A stretch of 64,000 nt of DNA, taken from NCBI RefSeq assembly GCF_003334785.1, contig NZ_QOWV01000013.1. The stretch is one strand, 5' to 3'. The position numbers and the translations under genes are program-made. Below, in pieces: positions 18,545 through 25,419 of this stretch. The notes under the pieces were generated by a model that saw only the letters and a list, made by a program, of their open reading frames with translations, was not told the DNA's origin and did no database searches. Position 1 is the stretch's first letter, and each line of letters starts with the position of its first letter. The DNA comes from Escherichia coli (GTDB taxonomy: Bacteria > Pseudomonadota > Gammaproteobacteria > Enterobacterales > Enterobacteriaceae).

Positions 18545-18612
18545 ATGCCGAATGAAGCGTTTATGCCGCATCCGGTAGTCCCGAAACGTGCGGGGGCAAC
18601 CCCGCACACATC
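18545..18612. repeat. REP-like palindromic element plus hairpin
   Basis: gccgaatgaagcgtttatgccgcatccgg followed by gtgcgggggcaaccccgcac. Confidence 0.5.
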
Positions 18613-18673
18613 AATAATCCCTCCCTTCCCCTGTGCTACACTTCGCGCCATTCCTTACTGCTTAGAGTTTGCT

Positions 18674-19684
18674 ATGAGACGAGAACTTGCCATCGAATTT
18701 TCCCGCGTCACCGAATCAGCGGCGCTGGCTGGCTACAAATGGTTAGGACGCGGCGATAAAAACACCGCGGACGGCGCGGCGGTAAACGCCATGCGTATTA
18801 TGCTCAACCAGGTCAACATTGACGGCACCATCGTCATTGGTGAAGGTGAAATCGACGAAGCACCGATGCTCTACATTGGTGAAAAAGTCGGTACTGGTCG
18901 CGGCGACGCGGTAGATATTGCTGTTGATCCGATTGAAGGCACGCGCATGACGGCGATGGGCCAGGCTAACGCGCTGGCGGTGCTGGCAGTAGGCGATAAA
19001 GGCTGCTTCCTCAATGCGCCGGATATGTATATGGAGAAGCTGATTGTCGGGCCGGGAGCCAAAGGCACCATTGATCTGAACCTGCCGCTGGCGGATAACC
19101 TGCGCAATGTAGCGGCGGCGCTCGGCAAACCGTTGAGCGAACTGACGGTAACGATTCTGGCTAAACCACGCCACGATGCCGTTATCGCTGAAATGCAGCA
19201 ACTCGGCGTACGCGTATTTGCTATTCCGGACGGCGACGTTGCGGCCTCAATTCTCACCTGTATGCCAGACAGCGAAGTTGACGTGCTGTACGGTATTGGT
19301 GGCGCGCCGGAAGGCGTAGTTTCTGCGGCGGTGATCCGCGCATTAGATGGCGACATGAACGGTCGTCTGCTGGCGCGTCATGACGTCAAAGGCGACAACG
19401 AAGAGAATCGTCGCATTGGCGAGCAGGAGCTGGCACGCTGCAAAGCGATGGGCATCGAAGCCGGTAAAGTATTGCGCCTGGGCGATATGGCGCGCAGCGA
19501 TAACGTCATCTTCTCTGCCACCGGTATTACCAAAGGCGATCTGCTGGAAGGCATTAGCCGCAAAGGCAATATCGCGACTACCGAAACGCTGCTGATCCGC
19601 GGCAAGTCACGCACCATTCGCCGCATTCAGTCCATCCACTATCTGGATCGCAAAGACCCGGAAATGCAGGTGCACATCCTCTGA
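18674..19684 (+). CDS. glpX: fructose-1,6-bisphosphatase class II
   Basis: Track ORF 18545..19684; 336-aa GlpX from internal MRRELAIEFSRVTESAALAGYKWLGRGDKN. Confidence 0.94.
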   Translation: MRRELAIEFSRVTESAALAGYKWLGRGDKNTADGAAVNAMRIMLNQVNIDGTIVIGEGEIDEAPMLYIGEKVGTGRGDAVDIAVDPIEGTRMTAMGQANALAVLAVGDKGCFLNAPDMYMEKLIVGPGAKGTIDLNLPLADNLRNVAAALGKPLSELTVTILAKPRHDAVIAEMQQLGVRVFAIPDGDVAASILTCMPDSEVDVLYGIGGAPEGVVSAAVIRALDGDMNGRLLARHDVKGDNEENRRIGEQELARCKAMGIEAGKVLRLGDMARSDNVIFSATGITKGDLLEGISRKGNIATTETLLIRGKSRTIRRIQSIHYLDRKDPEMQVHIL

Positions 19685-19780: not shown

Positions 19781-20527
19781 ATGGCTGATTGGGTAACAGG
19801 CAAAGTCACTAAAGTGCAGAACTGGACCGACGCCCTGTTTAGTCTCACCGTTCACGCCCCCGTGCTTCCGTTTACCGCCGGGCAATTTACCAAGCTTGGC
19901 CTTGAAATCGACGGCGAACGCGTCCAGCGCGCCTACTCCTATGTAAACTCGCCCGATAATCCCGATCTGGAGTTTTACCTGGTCACCGTCCCCGATGGCA
20001 AATTAAGCCCACGACTGGCGGCACTGAAACCAGGCGATGAAGTGCAGGTGGTTAGCGAAGCGGCAGGATTCTTTGTGCTCGATGAAGTGCCGCACTGCGA
20101 AACGCTATGGATGCTGGCAACCGGTACAGCGATTGGCCCTTATTTATCGATTCTGCAACTAGGTAAAGATTTAGATCGCTTCAAAAATCTGGTCCTGGTG
20201 CACGCCGCACGTTATGCCGCCGACTTAAGCTATTTGCCACTGATGCAGGAACTGGAAAAACGCTACGAAGGAAAACTGCGCATTCAGACGGTGGTCAGTC
20301 GGGAAACGGCAGCGGGGTCGCTCACCGGACGGATACCGGCATTAATTGAAAGTGGGGAACTGGAAAGCACGATTGGCCTGCCGATGAATAAAGAAACCAG
20401 CCATGTGATGCTGTGCGGCAATCCACAGATGGTGCGCGATACACAACAGTTGCTGAAAGAGACCCGGCAGATGACGAAACATTTACGTCGCCGACCGGGC
20501 CATATGACAGCGGAGCATTACTGGTAA
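19781..20527 (+). CDS. fpr: ferredoxin/flavodoxin-NADP+ reductase
   Basis: ORF track 248 aa MADWVTGKVTKVQNWTDALFSLTVHAPVLPFTAGQF... Confidence 0.96.
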   Translation: MADWVTGKVTKVQNWTDALFSLTVHAPVLPFTAGQFTKLGLEIDGERVQRAYSYVNSPDNPDLEFYLVTVPDGKLSPRLAALKPGDEVQVVSEAAGFFVLDEVPHCETLWMLATGTAIGPYLSILQLGKDLDRFKNLVLVHAARYAADLSYLPLMQELEKRYEGKLRIQTVVSRETAAGSLTGRIPALIESGELESTIGLPMNKETSHVMLCGNPQMVRDTQQLLKETRQMTKHLRRRPGHMTAEHYW

Positions 20528-20531
20528 GCGG

Positions 20532-20960
20532 TTACTTATCGATAAACGGCACGATGAGCAAATCCGCACTCATCTTATTGATCATCCCGCGATATGCCGG
20601 CATCAAACGGTTGATAAATGAGTGATGATGACCACAGACAAGGAGGTCGCACTGCTCTTTTTGCATAATTTCCAGCAGTGTTTCCGGCATTTCTCCGCGT
20701 TCAATACGCAGTTTTGTCTTCGGCCATTGAATATTTTTCGTCAGTTTATACAGCTTGTTATCCGACTTATTCTTCAACAATTGAAGAATATCTTCTGTTG
20801 CAGGGAAGTAGATACCCGGATACAACTCGCTTAAGCCATCATCAATATGAATTAACGTCAGGTGAGCGTCATTATGTCTGGCGAGCTCCAGGGCTTTATT
20901 CACCAGTAAGGCATCTTCTTCATTCCCGGAAATTGCCACGCCAATGTGTTTATAAGCCAT
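20532..20960 (-). CDS. uspD: universal stress protein D
   Basis: ORF track 142 aa [41 protein letters not shown]... Confidence 0.93.
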
Positions 20961-20986
20961 GTTTAACTCCTTCTAAAGCAACTCCA

Positions 20987-21286
20987 TCAAGCTAACGAAC
21001 GCAGTGATAACTCAAAAATAATCATCTCGGCCTGGCATGAGAAAGTGAAGGCCGCATCAAGCTCAACTTGCCCCTCCAGATCCTTAATCTTATAGGCCAC
21101 GCTGGCCCCTTCATCTGCAGAGGATGTAGCGGCGGCAAGCTCTTTCAGTTTGGTCATAAAAGACTCTGCTTCTTCGCGGGTGGCAAAAAAGCGCGAAAAC
21201 TTACTGGTACAGTTGTCGTTATCAATCACCGTACCGATATCAATCGCACATCCTTTAGTACTGCATTTATCTACGACATCTTTCAT
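20987..21286 (-). CDS. yiiS: YiiS, DUF406-family protein of unknown function
   Basis: ORF track 99 aa [30 protein letters not shown]... Confidence 0.85.
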
Positions 21287-21497
21287 AGGGCACCTCTGTA
21301 TATTCGCCTCTCTGTCGATTACGACTTAAGAATAATGCGCCGTTAAGGGAAGAACAAACAAGTAATGATCTTATGGATTACCATTTTTTTTGATATTGCT
21401 TAAGGTGAAGAGTTCAGAAGGATTTTCCGGGTATTGTCATTTGCATCGTGGAAATAACAATCCCGGAAAAAAATAGCAGTAAGAGATATATTAAAGG

Positions 21498-21938
21498 TTA
21501 ATTACTTGATTTATTGTCGGCTTTATACTTCACATCCTGAGTATCTTTACCATATTTATTTTCGCCTTGTGTGCCAACAAACGCACCAAGATCGATAAGC
21601 ATCATCACCAGAATCAACGTCGGGACAAAACGCCCCACCGCCCATTGCCAGACACCCGGTAAAATCGCCCAGTTACCCGCCAGCAGCATCCACGCCACAA
21701 TCATCAGAAATGCCCATGCGCCGGAACGCCCGCGATCATGCAAGCGCTTAACAGTTACTGCCGCTGTTGGCCAGAGCAAGCACACAAGGCAAAACGCCGC
21801 GGTCTGAATATCGAGTAGATTCTTACCCGCCAGTGAGAAAAGCACCAGCATGCCTGCGAACCACAGGCCTATCCAAATCCAGAAATCACGGCGTCCAATA
21901 CGCCCTTTAAATGAGAATAACCATTGCTGTATGGTCAT
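21498..21938 (-). CDS. yiiR: YiiR, DUF805-family inner membrane protein
   Basis: ORF track 146 aa MTIQQWLFSFKGRIGRRDFWIWIGLWFAGMLVLF...; several hydrophobic segments. Confidence 0.85.
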   Translation of the reverse strand: MTIQQWLFSFKGRIGRRDFWIWIGLWFAGMLVLFSLAGKNLLDIQTAAFCLVCLLWPTAAVTVKRLHDRGRSGAWAFLMIVAWMLLAGNWAILPGVWQWAVGRFVPTLILVMMLIDLGAFVGTQGENKYGKDTQDVKYKADNKSSN

Positions 21939-22038
21939 GTAAGTTCCTTGATGGTTGTCTTTTCCAGGATTCTACCCTTTTGACAAGGGCGACAGATATC
22001 GTTTTAATCGGAGCCAGTCATAACAAAAGGTACTGTCA

Positions 22039-22638
22039 ATGAAGCCAGGGTGTACGCTGTTTTTTCTCTTATGTTCTGCATTAACCGTTACAACAGCGGC
22101 GCATGCACAAACACCAGATACGGCAACGACCGCGCCTTATCTGCTGGCTGGAGCCCCTACTTTCGATCTCTCCATCAGCCAGTTTCGAGAAGACTTTAAC
22201 AGCCAGAATCCCAGCCTGCCACTGAACGAATTTCGTGCCATCGACAGCAGTCCCGACAAAGCCAATCTCACTCGTGCTGCAAGTAAAATTAATGAGAACT
22301 TGTATGCTTCTACAGCGCTGGAGCGCGGTACCTTAAAAATCAAAAGCATTCAAATGACCTGGCTACCCATCCAGGGGCCAGAGCAAAAAGCCGCGAAAGC
22401 GAAAGCTCAGGAATACATGGCAGCGGTGATCCGCACACTCACCCCATTAATGACCAAAACACAAAGCCAGAAAAAACTGCAGTCGCTACTAACGGCGGGG
22501 AAAAACAAACGTTATTACACCGAGACAGAAGGTGCACTGCGTTATGTTGTCGCGGACAACGGCGAAAAGGGGCTGACCTTCGCTGTTGAACCGATTAAGC
22601 TGGCGCTATCTGAATCGCTTGAAGGTTTGAATAAATGA
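22039..22638 (+). CDS. yiiQ: YiiQ, DUF1454-family periplasmic protein
   Basis: ORF track 199 aa with signal peptide MKPGCTLFFLLCSALTVTTAAHA. Confidence 0.85.
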   Translation: MKPGCTLFFLLCSALTVTTAAHAQTPDTATTAPYLLAGAPTFDLSISQFREDFNSQNPSLPLNEFRAIDSSPDKANLTRAASKINENLYASTALERGTLKIKSIQMTWLPIQGPEQKAAKAKAQEYMAAVIRTLTPLMTKTQSQKKLQSLLTAGKNKRYYTETEGALRYVVADNGEKGLTFAVEPIKLALSESLEGLNK

Positions 22639-22745
22639 CAAAAAGCAAAGCCTTTGTGCCGATGAATCTCTATACTGTTTCACAGACCTGCTGCCCTGCG
22701 GGGCGGCCATCTTCCTTTATTCGCTTATAAGCGTGGAGAATTAAA

Positions 22746-23513
22746 ATGCGACATCCTTTAGTGATGGGTAACTGGAAACTGAACGGCAGCCGCCACATGG
22801 TTCACGAGCTGGTTTCTAACCTGCGTAAAGAGCTGGCAGGTGTTGCTGGCTGTGCGGTTGCAATCGCACCACCGGAAATGTATATCGATATGGCGAAGCG
22901 CGAAGCTGAAGGCAGCCACATCATGCTGGGTGCGCAAAACGTGGACCTGAACCTGTCCGGCGCATTCACCGGTGAAACCTCTGCTGCTATGCTGAAAGAC
23001 ATCGGCGCACAGTACATCATCATCGGTCACTCTGAACGTCGTACTTACCACAAAGAATCTGACGAACTGATCGCGAAAAAATTCGCGGTGCTGAAAGAGC
23101 AGGGCCTGACTCCGGTTCTGTGCATCGGTGAAACCGAAGCTGAAAATGAAGCGGGCAAAACTGAAGAAGTTTGCGCACGTCAGATCGACGCGGTACTGAA
23201 AACTCAGGGTGCTGCGGCATTCGAAGGTGCGGTTATCGCTTACGAACCTGTATGGGCAATCGGTACTGGCAAATCTGCAACTCCGGCTCAGGCACAGGCT
23301 GTTCACAAATTCATCCGTGACCACATCGCTAAAGTTGACGCTAACATCGCTGAACAAGTGATCATTCAGTACGGCGGCTCTGTAAACGCGTCTAACGCTG
23401 CAGAACTGTTTGCTCAGCCGGATATCGACGGCGCGCTGGTTGGTGGTGCTTCTCTGAAAGCTGACGCCTTCGCAGTAATCGTTAAAGCTGCAGAAGCGGC
23501 TAAACAGGCTTAA
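22746..23513 (+). CDS. tpiA: triosephosphate isomerase
   Basis: ORF track 255 aa [32 protein letters not shown]... Confidence 0.97.
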
Positions 23514-23567: not shown

Positions 23568-24323
23568 TTAACGCAAAATCTCACACTGATGATCCTGAAT
23601 TTCCTCGGCTGAAGCACGGTTAAGCGTCAGTAGATTTCGTTGTGTCGCCAGCAATACAAATGAGTTATCACTCTGCCGTACCATCGCCAGCCCGTAGCGT
23701 CCCATATGTTCCCGCGCCTCAGGTACTTCTTCTGCCAGCATCATAAATGGGCTGCGTTGTACCAGTTCGCTTTCCGTTACCCGACGCGCCAGGTATTCAT
23801 GCCCGCGCAAACCACCTGGCAGTGGCAACCAGCGGCTGCTGATGTTCGCCAGATTGTTATCCAGCTGTTTGCGCACATCAGGACGAATACAAGAGATATG
23901 AATATGAAAATGGTTTTGCGTACGCCCGGTGCGGGAGTTGATCGCCAAAGAAACCGCGCGATCGGGAACCGGCTGGCCGTATTTTTTGCTCATAAAATCA
24001 CGCGCCTGCCAAGCCAACCAAAAGAAGTTCGGCGTTGAAGGATCGGTCAACAAAGGACTTTCAGTACCGTTAATACGATACGTTGGCATCAACAGATATT
24101 GCAGTGGGCCATTAAGATCTTTTAAAACCACGTATCCGGCATTGGGTTTGACTTCCGCACATGGCGAAGGATTTTGATTTTGCTGCTGATTGGGCAAACA
24201 TTCCTCAAGGACAATCTTACGTAATGTATCCGACTCTTCACCGGTTAATTTCCAGTAACCAATACCGGCAGCCACAACGGCGATAACTATCATCACCAAA
24301 AAAAGAAGACCCGCTTTTTTCAT
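23568..24323 (-). CDS. cdh: CDP-diacylglycerol pyrophosphatase
   Basis: Track ORF 23568..24515 (TTG start); 251-aa Cdh from internal [26 protein letters not shown]; start coordinate from track arithmetic. Confidence 0.9.
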
Positions 24324-24429
24324 CTTTTTTTCCCTGTACCTCAAAGAGATGCAAGGGTAACGCAAAATCGTGACAAATAAAAAACCCGGTCGCGAGAAAC
24401 CACCGGGTTTGATAATTATCCTGGGGAAA

Positions 24430-25419
24430 TCAGCGTTTGCTGATCTGATCGAACGTACCGCCGTTAGCAAAATGCTCTTTTTGCGCTTTCGTCCAGCCGC
24501 CGAACTCTTCATCAATGGTGAATAACTTCAGCTTTGGAAACGCATTTTCGTACTTTTTCGCCACCTCAGCGTCGCGCGGACGGTAGTAGTTTTTCGCGGC
24601 AATTTCCTGACCTTCTGGCGAGTAGAGATATTTCAGGTAGGCTTCCGCCACCTCTTTAGTACCTTTTTTCTCGACCACTTTATCGACCACCGACACGGTT
24701 GGCTCTGCGAGGATAGACTCACTCGGCGTGACGATTTCGAATTTATCTTTCCCCAGTTCATTCGCTGCCAGCAGAGCTTCGTTTTCCCAGGCAATCAGTA
24801 CATCGCCAATTCCGCGCTCGACAAAAGTGTTAGTGGAGCCACGCGCGCCAGAATCCAGAACTTCGACGTTTTTATACAGTGCCCGAACAAAATCCTGTGC
24901 TTTTGCCTGATCGTTGTTGTTGTGATGCAGCGCGTAGCCCCAGGCTGCCAGGTAGTTCCAGCGCGCGCCACCAGAGCTTTTCGGATTAGGCGTGATCACC
25001 GAAACACCCGGTTTAATCAGATCGTTCCAGTCATGGATCTGCTTCGGATTTCCCTTACGTACCAGGAAAACAATGGTGGAAGTGTACGGTGCGGAGTTAT
25101 CCGGCAGACGTTTGATCCACTCTTTATCAATCCGCCCGCGTTCCGCAATTGCGTCCACGTCATAGGCCAGAGCCAGCGTGACAACATCAGCTTCAATACC
25201 GTTGATTACCGACGTCGCTTGTTTACCTGAGCCACCGTGTGACTGACGAATCACCACGTTATCACCAGTTTGCTGTTTCCAGTGGGCGCTGAATGCCTTG
25301 TTGTACTGTTCGTACAATTCGCGCGTTGGATCATATGAAACGTTAAGAAGCTGAATATCCTTTGCCATAACGCTGGTTGCCGCCAGCAAAAATGTTAACC
25401 CTACGCCCCACTTGTTCAT
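24430..25419 (-). CDS. sbp: periplasmic sulfate-binding protein
   Basis: ORF track 329 aa [43 protein letters not shown]... Confidence 0.95.

Follow-up and report, generated by a model that had tools for sequence, protein, structure and literature searches.

The yiiS, yiiR and yiiQ genes of Escherichia coli may well belong to two units, yiiS-uspD and yiiR/yiiQ

Introduction

The yiiS-uspD gene pair of Escherichia coli has been published as a member of both the sigmaE and the YdeO regulons. YdeO was shown by ChIP-chip, EMSA, RT-qPCR and a lacZ fusion to bind and activate yiiS-uspD, and yiiR, unlike yiiS and uspD, was not induced by it (PMC4222967). The sigmaE regulon table gives 'yiiS uspD b3922-23' as one unit (PMC2731931), and yiiS serves as a sigmaE reporter with reduced expression in a degS mutant (PMC6941253); yiiS goes unmentioned in the main text of the Rhodius sigmaE paper. 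UspD has been tied to the control of iron levels (PMC3673472, citing Nachin 2005).

YiiS is a small monomer of the DUF406 family, for which NMR structures are available as 2K3I (Shigella flexneri YiiS), 2JZ5 (VPA0419) and 2KHD (VC_A0919) (PMC2860719). Most members of this family are of the YfcZ type, adjoining fadL and/or fadI-fadJ and displaying the pattern C-CC...DNxDC...SEPC...FxCQAE. Publications on yfcZ, comprising proteomics lists and a sweep in the yfcZ/fadL intergenic region during copper evolution, offered no hint of its function.

The E. coli paralogues of the DUF805 protein YiiR are YhaH and YhaI. Mutants in yhaH are resistant to phages PhiWec188 and PhiWec190 and become sensitive again when complemented (bioRxiv 10.1101/2024.11.29.626071); this phenotype is the sole functional hint in DUF805 and concerns YhaH, not YiiR. 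For the DUF1454 family (PF07305), to which YiiQ belongs, there is no function or solved structure on record.

The genes, the yiiS-uspD operon with its regulators, and the YiiS structure are thus already on record. What is new in the present analysis is the division of the supposed yiiS-yiiR-yiiQ cluster into two units, the paralogy of YiiS and YfcZ, the high conservation of the Cys-rich arm of DUF406, and the spread of YiiQ across Enterobacterales with its weak PAS-like fold similarity.

Results

Layout and identity of the locus

The window, a 64,000-nucleotide stretch of E. coli DNA (assembly GCF_003334785.1, contig NZ_QOWV01000013.1), carries the gene order glpX-fpr-uspD-yiiS-yiiR-yiiQ-tpiA of the E. 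coli locus, and this locus was found in all 5,426 of 5,426 complete E. coli genomes. The RefSeq annotation names the same genes (uspD, yiiS, yiiR and yiiQ). The following features were located:

20532-20960, minus strand: uspD (yiiT), the second operon gene, encoding universal stress protein D (142 aa) (ORF; RefSeq)
20961-20986, minus strand: spacer of 26 bp separating the yiiS stop codon from the start of uspD (sequence)
20987-21286, minus strand: yiiS, 99 aa, DUF406 (YfcZ/YiiS family) (ORF)
21498-21938, minus strand: yiiR, 146 aa, DUF805 inner-membrane protein (ORF; Pfam)
21939-22038, no strand assigned: yiiR/yiiQ divergent promoter spacer, 100 bp (sequence)
22039-22638, plus strand: yiiQ, 199 aa, DUF1454 periplasmic protein (ORF; Pfam)
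22690-22707, plus strand: terminator-like GC-rich hairpin in the yiiQ/tpiA gap (consensus scan; a pattern match only)

The first-pass annotation had described yiiS, yiiR and yiiQ as a cluster of three uncharacterised genes next to uspD. The positions and lengths that it gave agreed with the ORF list, its assignments to DUF406, DUF805 and DUF1454 were borne out by Pfam (PF04175, PF05656 and PF07305), and the cysteine motif that it had noticed, CSTKGC, is part of K-C-S-T-K-G-C at YiiS residues 7-13. Its statement that none of the three genes has an established function also held, as none was found in the searchable literature. These are already catalogued E. coli genes, and the earlier observation was correct but ordinary. 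No Rfam RNA family was found in 20300-22900, and none of YiiS, YiiR and YiiQ (0/3) matched a PADLOC anti-phage model.

The yiiS-uspD operon and its upstream spacer

The yiiS and uspD genes have the features of an operon throughout, being encoded on one strand with a short gap and reported to be co-induced, and a terminator scan found no terminator-like site in the 26-bp gap between them. The same-strand arrangement and 26-bp gap had been noted before, together with a placement of yiiS downstream of uspD that does not stand: since both genes are read from the minus strand, yiiS, at the higher coordinates, is upstream and promoter-proximal. It is in plus-strand coordinates only that yiiS lies 'downstream' of uspD. 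The suggestion that the two genes are co-transcribed was already in print (PMC4222967, PMC2731931). UspD itself matched NCBIfam NF007436 with 329 bits (cutoff 203).

The yiiR-yiiS spacer is 211 bp in length and holds a sigmaE-type motif together with an inverted repeat resembling the YdeO box:

21389-21415, minus strand: sigmaE-type promoter motif GAACTC-N16-TCAAA, upstream of yiiS (motif scan)
21423-21470, minus strand: strong imperfect hairpin, located after the stop codon of yiiR and before the promoter of yiiS (RNA folding)

A candidate promoter of the kind seen in the sigmaE regulon (GGAACTT-N16-TCAAA-like) is present upstream of yiiS-uspD. The motif GAACTC-N16-TCAAA occurred once in the 64-kb window, where 0.56 matches would be expected by chance, so that the motif alone is weak evidence and the sigmaE dependence of yiiS-uspD is taken from the literature (PMC6941253, PMC2731931) and not from the motif. 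E. albertii and E. fergusonii share the -10 element and 5' UTR of yiiS but not the -35 element.

The hairpin folded at -22.8 kcal/mol (z -6.3), and in E. albertii a compensatory T>C/A>G change preserves its stem. It was recovered by folding, an ungapped inverted-repeat search having missed it because of a one-base bulge. The hairpin bears ATTTCC...GCAAAT half-sites similar to the published YdeO box (inverted ATTTCA), and these half-sites may constitute a putative YdeO site. A role of the hairpin as an intrinsic terminator of yiiR was also considered; on the yiiR strand the U-run comes before the stem, which is followed by A's.

Distribution of yiiS-uspD and of yiiR/yiiQ

Synteny was studied by tblastn at 52 species-representative Enterobacteriaceae loci found through YiiQ. 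The order glpX-fpr-yiiR-yiiQ-tpiA was conserved across these 52 loci, while UspD and YiiS were found between fpr and yiiR in E. coli and E. albertii only. In the gene map of E. fergusonii yiiS-uspD was likewise present at the fpr/yiiR site, and in that of Salmonella fpr was followed directly by yiiR. Junction sequences revealed that the fpr and yiiR stop codons abut in several genera, and every non-Escherichia genus examined had yiiR-yiiQ without yiiS-uspD. The part of the locus restricted to Escherichia could thereby be delimited:

20528-21497, no strand assigned: Escherichia-only segment of ~970 bp (uspD, yiiS and the promoter region) between convergent fpr and yiiR (tblastn, gene maps, junctions)

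The GC content of this segment was 0.37-0.48, versus 0.45-0.59 in its flanks. The closest YiiS-like genes outside Escherichia, in Klebsiella and Kluyvera, are at other loci with no usp neighbour, and no DUF805 or DUF1454 gene adjoins them.

It is most likely that yiiS-uspD was inserted between the convergent fpr and yiiR genes in Escherichia, and at this locus yiiR/yiiQ is the older gene pair. On balance, the reading that we lean towards is that this segment, of known identity, comprises two units, yiiS-uspD and yiiR/yiiQ, that are independent in both evolution and transcription.

The description of the three genes as one cluster is contradicted by the synteny at the 52 loci and by the failure of yiiR to respond to YdeO. 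A stronger form of that description would have yiiS, yiiR, yiiQ and uspD acting as one co-regulated functional stress module. The four genes do lie within 2.1 kb, their products are all small proteins without known function, and genomic SELEX has reported an RpoS site for the yiiQ/yiiR/yiiS region (PMC5493296). However, YdeO acts on yiiS and uspD and leaves yiiR uninduced, yiiQ is transcribed divergently, yiiR-yiiQ occurs elsewhere without yiiS-uspD, and the YiiS-like genes of Klebsiella and Kluyvera stand apart from DUF805 and DUF1454 genes. A single module is largely refuted by the synteny, and we regard it as very improbable.

The yiiR/yiiQ pair

YiiR matched PF05656 (DUF805) over model positions 1-111/111 (E=9.5e-19). 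It resembles other DUF805 proteins in having four hydrophobic helices and a cytoplasmic K-R-L-H-D-R-G-R-S-G loop; four TM helices were predicted, with hydropathy peaks of at least 1.6, and K+R counts (positive-inside) favoured an N-in/C-in topology. A marginal match to the PHROGs family phrog_12855 'membrane protein' was obtained at 4e-4, and no NCBIfam model matched either YiiR or YiiQ.

YiiQ matched PF07305 (DUF1454) at near full length (E=5.5e-92). A signal peptide is predicted at residues 1-23 (22039-22107), with cleavage after A-H-A and Q as the next residue; it was called from the hydrophobic N terminus and from the divergence of orthologues, in which the signal region varies and the mature part is highly conserved. 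YiiQ was also considered as a lipoprotein on account of Cys5 and Cys12; this was rejected, there being no lipobox (F-L-L-C) and Cys12 being Phe in Salmonella and Citrobacter. The family is spread across Enterobacterales, insect endosymbionts included.

The adjacency of yiiR and yiiQ between fpr and tpiA is conserved across Enterobacteriaceae, with starts at 5900 and 6001, respectively, in Escherichia, Salmonella and most Citrobacter loci, and with somewhat wider spacing in other genera. From location and synteny, yiiR and yiiQ most likely form an envelope-located pair. A more specific proposal is that YiiQ would be a periplasmic PAS-like ligand binder, paired with the membrane protein YiiR as an accessory to sensing or transport. 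The AF2 model of YiiQ gave only weak PAS-like fold similarity, and the proposal is unlikely.

YiiS, its fold and its YfcZ paralogue

YiiS matched PF04175 (DUF406) over model positions 4-91/91 (E=1.3e-28) and NCBIfam NF007435 (TIGR00743) with 197.4 bits (cutoff 130); a PHROGs match to phrog_2978 at 0.008 was marginal. The protein differs from the 2K3I sequence at 1 residue, and the structural check proposed in the first-pass annotation had therefore, for YiiS, already been answered by that solved NMR structure. YiiS has the beta-alpha-beta-beta-alpha fold of DUF406, as in 2K3I and 2JZ5, forming a cytoplasmic domain at residues ~27-98 that follows a conserved Cys-rich arm. Cysteines are located at C8, C13 and C26 in the arm and at C84 in the domain.

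YiiS is a paralogue of YfcZ, the product of the fadL-linked DUF406 gene, with 43% identity, and it represents a minority type within the family. Compared with the YfcZ type it has lost both the CC doublet and the cysteine of SEPC, it retains a Cys at position 8, where only about 40% of the DUF406 family has one, and in Escherichia it sits in an operon with uspD, unlike the YfcZ-type members.

The Cys-rich arm

Among 75 close relatives the four YiiS cysteines are 96-99% conserved. Across DUF406 the Cys frequency is 0.69-0.89 at positions 12, 13, 14, 26, 61 and 84, the median count is 6 Cys in 98 aa, and segment 12-27 is conserved to the level of helix 2, above the rest of DUF406. Judged by secondary-structure position, C26, position 61 and C84 lie at the same end of the sheet. 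The position 61 Cys is lost in YiiS, and C26 and C84 are absent from the Vibrio VC_A0919 alignment; that the Cys positions are not invariant across DUF406 counts against a metal or thiol site.

Residues 1-28 were disordered in the NMR work, and the Vibrio construct lacked the first 16 residues (PMC2860719). The samples were aerobic and contained 10 mM DTT and CaCl2, with no Zn or Fe (PMC2860719), and so they say nothing on bound metal. A thiol or metal site is plausible because the conserved Cys arm was either disordered or cut off in these studies. In the AF2 model of YiiS, residues 1-14 have pLDDT <50, and because of this low confidence in the arm a pre-formed Cys site has no computed support. 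Taken alone, a thiol or metal site in YiiS, as suggested by the cysteine pattern, is a tentative possibility.

Two other accounts of YiiS leave the cysteines aside. According to the hypothesis of the NMR authors, YiiS would be a small enzyme or ligand binder acting through the conserved Glu87 surface (Glu89 in NMR numbering), by analogy with pterin-4a-carbinolamine dehydratase (DCoH), and the Cys arm would be incidental; we consider this analogy improbable as an explanation. Alternatively, YiiS could be a cofactor-free adaptor of the ferredoxin-like/RRM type, binding RNA or protein and modulating UspD or a different partner. Ribosomal S10 and RRM domains are among its fold neighbours, it is small and monomeric, and it shares an mRNA with UspD; against this, the exposed sheet face is neutral to slightly positive, RNA-binding residues are not conserved, and the pairing with uspD is genus-specific. 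Such an adaptor is distinctly unlikely.

Discussion

In the explanation proposed here, yiiS and uspD are transcribed as a bicistronic operon from the yiiR-yiiS spacer and, as published, switched on by sigmaE (envelope stress) and by the acid-response activator YdeO. YiiS combines its ferredoxin-like beta-alpha-beta-beta-alpha domain with a flexible, highly conserved Cys-rich N-terminal arm. At one pole of the sheet, this arm could join Cys84 and the invariant Glu87 in a thiol-based site, either for metal (Zn or Fe/Fe-S) or for redox chemistry. YiiS may then act beside UspD in Escherichia during envelope, acid or oxidative stress. The yiiR (4-TM inner membrane) and yiiQ (periplasmic) genes would form the separate, divergent pair in the envelope.

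A broader, rather doubtful extension is that DUF406 could be an unrecognised gamma-proteobacterial family of Cys-ligated metal (Zn or Fe/Fe-S) or thiol-redox proteins, the active site of which was missed structurally because the arm was reduced, metal-free or truncated. The Escherichia paralogue would have been captured into a sigmaE/YdeO operon with UspD, where it would handle iron or oxidative damage in envelope and acid stress. Because the pairing is restricted to one genus, the link between YiiS and UspD may reflect an accident of insertion in the past and not a functional coupling. The yiiS-uspD operon also differs from the core sigmaE envelope-biogenesis genes in encoding two cytoplasmic proteins, in being confined at this locus to Escherichia, and in having a -35 element whose conservation does not extend even to E. 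albertii or E. fergusonii.

As a discovery the present work carries limited weight, and the accepted status of yiiS, yiiR and yiiQ is 'function unknown'. It does caution against treating the three genes as a single module. It also dates yiiS-uspD as an Escherichia-specific addition, which bears on any use of yiiS outside E. coli to report on sigmaE, given that the -35 element is already not conserved in E. albertii. The metal or redox behaviour of full-length YiiS and YfcZ may offer a first biochemical handle on this y-ome family, and such data could also shed light on the little-understood connection of UspD with iron.

Gene layout and identity

RefSeq names the genes along the stretch fpr, uspD, yiiS, yiiR, yiiQ and tpiA, and a 2.4-kb query taken from it was matched at ≥95% identity in 5,426 of 5,426 complete E. 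coli genomes.

Features of the locus (the four full genes as in the mechanical ORF list)
fpr, ends at 20527
20532-20960, minus strand, uspD, 142 aa
20987-21286, minus strand, yiiS, 99 aa, DUF406 in RefSeq
21498-21938, minus strand, yiiR, 146 aa, DUF805 in RefSeq
22039-22638, plus strand, yiiQ, 199 aa, YiiQ family in RefSeq
tpiA, starts at 22746

Profile searches matched YiiS to PF04175 (DUF406; E=1.3e-28) and to NCBIfam NF007435 (197 bits; cutoff 130), YiiR to PF05656 (DUF805; E=9.5e-19) and YiiQ to PF07305 (DUF1454; E=5.5e-92). The ORF list, RefSeq and the profile searches therefore concur with the first-pass annotation on the positions and families of the three y-genes. The 26-bp gap between yiiS and uspD on one strand was also seen in the ORF coordinates. 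However, yiiS had been placed downstream of uspD, and this order must be reversed: both genes read along the minus strand, so yiiS, whose coordinates are higher, stands upstream of uspD and nearer the promoter. Two further ORFs, glpX (379 aa, 18545-19684, plus strand) and cdh (315 aa, 23568-24515, minus strand), were rejected as real extensions of the annotated genes of 336 and 251 aa, and are overlong because the ORF lister takes the first in-frame start codon.

A literature search found no published function for yiiS, yiiR or yiiQ, as had been supposed, and the relevant papers held nothing beyond listings of DUF406, DUF805 and DUF1454.

Two units at the uspD-tpiA locus

One genome per species was scanned with a YiiQ alignment, and each of the 52 loci recovered was searched by tblastn for GlpX, Fpr, UspD, YiiS, YiiR, YiiQ and TpiA. 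The order glpX-fpr-yiiR-yiiQ-tpiA was kept in essentially all 52, in genera including Citrobacter, Salmonella, Enterobacter, Kluyvera, Pluralibacter, Yokenella, Trabulsiella, Pseudocitrobacter and Intestinirhabdus, among others; the exceptions were one Kluyvera locus without a yiiR match and one Trabulsiella locus without an fpr match. UspD and YiiS were found by tblastn at the E. coli and E. albertii loci only, and an exact-protein look-up showed the same yiiS-uspD arrangement in E. fergusonii. The called genes in Salmonella were fpr, the DUF805 and DUF1454 genes and that for TIM, with none intervening. The three y-genes, previously described as one cluster, are thus not one module: fpr-yiiR-yiiQ-tpiA is kept across genera, while yiiS-uspD occurs at this locus only in Escherichia. 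By parsimony, the fpr/yiiR/yiiQ/tpiA backbone would be the older part, with yiiS-uspD inserted into it at the level of the genus. The G+C content of the Escherichia-only segment (~20528-21497) is lower, at 0.37-0.48 compared with 0.45-0.59 in the flanks.

In Enterobacter, Kluyvera and Yokenella, fpr and yiiR converge with their stop codons directly adjoining, and in Salmonella and Citrobacter REP-like palindromes (GCCGGATG...CTTATCCGGCCTAC) part the two stops. The C-terminal tail of YiiR is variable beyond V-K-Y-[KR] wherever this spacer has been remodelled, and because the tail changes with each remodelling the fpr/yiiR junction has the look of a hot spot for insertions. Outside Escherichia, the YiiS-like genes that come closest (57-63% identity) lie at other loci and have no usp neighbour: that of Klebsiella adjoins a gene for a nucleoside hydrolase and a convergent one for a TonB-dependent receptor, and that of Kluyvera follows an mppA-like binding-protein gene. 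From these contexts, the YiiS-type paralogue seems to have changed place repeatedly, each time on its own. The Klebsiella locus also adjoins a yncE-like gene.

Separately, enterobacterial yiiQ and yiiS sequences were met under 'Chryseobacterium sp. 18061', 'Bacillus subtilis' and the fungus 'Beauveria bassiana D1-5' (including AFDB entry A0A0A2VT29). Such records most likely stem from contaminated or mislabelled assemblies.

Regulation of the yiiS-uspD operon

The suggested co-transcription of yiiS with uspD proved to be published already. Yamanaka et al. (PMC4222967) give yiiS-yiiT/uspD as a single transcription unit, with a ChIP-chip peak and gel shift for the acid-response activator YdeO on the spacer upstream of yiiS, induction of yiiS and uspD >3-fold each on YdeO over-expression, and a yiiS-lacZ fusion that responds to YdeO while yiiR is unaffected. 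In a global study of envelope stress, 'yiiS uspD b3922-23' is entered as a single unit of the sigmaE regulon (PMC2731931), and yiiS mRNA serves as a sigmaE reporter, being up in a delta-rseA strain and down after degS deletion in a prc mutant (PMC6941253).

The sole match in the window to the sigmaE-type motif GAACTY-N15-17-TCNAA lies at 21415-21389 (minus strand), 102 bp 5' of the yiiS ATG; with 0.56 matches per window expected by chance, it is near chance on its own. In an alignment of E. coli, E. albertii and E. fergusonii, the -10 element TCAAA and the leader of ~100 nt are almost unchanged. The -35 element GAACTC, however, is present in E. coli only, being CATATC in E. albertii and also absent from E. 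fergusonii, so that sigmaE may control yiiS in a species-specific manner. Another promoter may lie within the conserved leader.

The stretch from the yiiR stop to the sigmaE motif contains a strong imperfect hairpin (21423-21470, minus strand; -22.8 kcal/mol, z -6.3); in E. albertii a compensatory pair of changes, T>C and A>G, preserves its stem. The ATTTCC...GCAAAT within it resembles the inverted ATTTCA published as the YdeO box. The hairpin differs from a canonical intrinsic terminator, because on the yiiR strand the T-run (U-run) precedes the stem and an A-run follows it, the reverse of such a terminator. The hairpin may be a YdeO box, a stabiliser of the yiiR 3' end, or both. No Rfam family was matched in the region.

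A few complete E. coli genomes carry IS1 between yiiR and yiiS (in WEM25, 1244-1941 of the retrieved locus), at a site corresponding to the spacer 21287-21497, directly 5' of the yiiS promoter region. In carrier strains this could change sigmaE/YdeO control of yiiS-uspD.

A terminator-like hairpin with a T-rich tail was also observed inside the yiiS coding region (21168-21192, minus strand). It is probably a chance match, since the scan found 4 such sites with 2.3 expected; a genuine site could reduce transcription running on into uspD.

YiiS and the DUF406 family

DUF406 is a small family: when 1.84 billion cluster representatives were searched in full with HMMER, just 77 proteins were returned. 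YiiS is 43% identical to its E. coli paralogue YfcZ ('YfcZ/YiiS family protein' in RefSeq), which is encoded in the order mlaA-fadL-yfcZ-fadI-fadJ. More distant members adjoin fadL (Toluene_X); of three contexts examined, two have fadI-fadJ alongside as well, among them the one closest to E. coli YfcZ. This gene neighbourhood hints at a possible link of DUF406 to fatty-acid uptake or oxidation. The yfcZ-fadL adjacency reaches more distant gamma-proteobacteria, and fadI-fadJ serve anaerobic fatty-acid oxidation.

The structure prediction proposed for YiiS has already been answered by experiment. The NMR structure of S. flexneri YiiS (PDB 2K3I), one residue different from the window protein, and those of two Vibrio relatives show a monomeric beta-alpha-beta-beta-alpha fold (PMC2860719). 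Its authors found no function and drew a tentative analogy to pterin-4a-carbinolamine dehydratase around a conserved Glu; the samples held 10 mM DTT and CaCl2 and no transition metal, residues 1-28 of YiiS were disordered, and the Vibrio construct omitted its first 16 residues (PMC2860719). The fold neighbours of YiiS outside its own family are generic ferredoxin-like ones only.

Among 75 close YiiS relatives, residues 5-18 are almost invariant and C8, C13, C26 and C84 are 96-99% conserved. A family-wide alignment of 34 representatives at ≤50% identity gave the consensus C..E-T-P-A-C-C-C-x-D-V-G-T-x-I-D-N-x-D-C ... S-E-P-C ... F-x-C-Q-A-E, with Cys at a frequency of 0.69-0.89 at six positions and a median of six Cys per 98 residues. 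Conservation of segment 12-27 is 0.67, the level of helix 2, compared with 0.43-0.52 for the rest. By these alignments few parts of YiiS and DUF406 are as well conserved as the N-terminal arm, a feature that the structural papers do not discuss; the pLDDT of the arm in the AF2 model is <50. C26 and position 61 precede strands 1 and 2, respectively, and C84 follows strand 3 beside the nearly invariant E87. From these secondary-structure positions and the published A-C-B sheet order, the three would share one pole of the sheet. The conserved Cys arm tentatively suggests a thiol/metal or redox site, a possibility that we consider rather doubtful. A passage in PMC3673472, citing Nachin 2005, reports UspD in the control of iron levels, and a putative thiol/metal site in YiiS would loosely agree with this.

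YiiR and YiiQ

YiiR has four hydropathy peaks, and its K+R counts (4 at the N-terminus, 4 in loop 2, K-R-L-H-D-R-G-R-S, and 0-1 in the periplasmic loops) favour a predicted N-in/C-in topology. YiiR had no match in NCBIfam or PADLOC and a marginal one only in PHROG, and its literature is confined to lists from resistance screens. YhaH is a DUF805 member and a paralogue of YiiR. Loss of yhaH makes E. coli resistant to two of its phages, an effect that complementation reverses (bioRxiv 10.1101/2024.11.29.626071); this is the only functional hint within DUF805.

The N-terminus of YiiQ is hydrophobic, ends A-H-A|Q and diverges among orthologues, whereas the mature part is very conserved; mean column identity over the whole alignment (23 sequences, 64-94% identical to the window protein) is 76%. 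The mature part has no cysteine and YiiQ has no lipobox. AF2 gave a moderate model (mean pLDDT 68.7, core 80-94). A Foldseek search of AFDB50 found the family across the order Enterobacterales, for example in Yersinia, Serratia, Dickeya, Proteus, Photorhabdus and Sodalis, and almost nothing beyond. In the literature, yiiQ appeared as a weak hit in a Salmonella desiccation Tn screen. The yiiR and yiiQ starts are ~100 bp apart in most genera examined, which is compatible with shared control.

Significance

The original observation holds and its description is accurate, but it repeats what is already annotated: the yiiS-uspD operon, the regulators of that operon and the structure of YiiS had been published, and it is accepted that the genes have no assigned function. 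What is added here is the evolutionary picture of two units, the recognition of YfcZ as a paralogue of YiiS, and the conserved Cys arm, so far neglected; these amount to modest refinements and one testable hypothesis.
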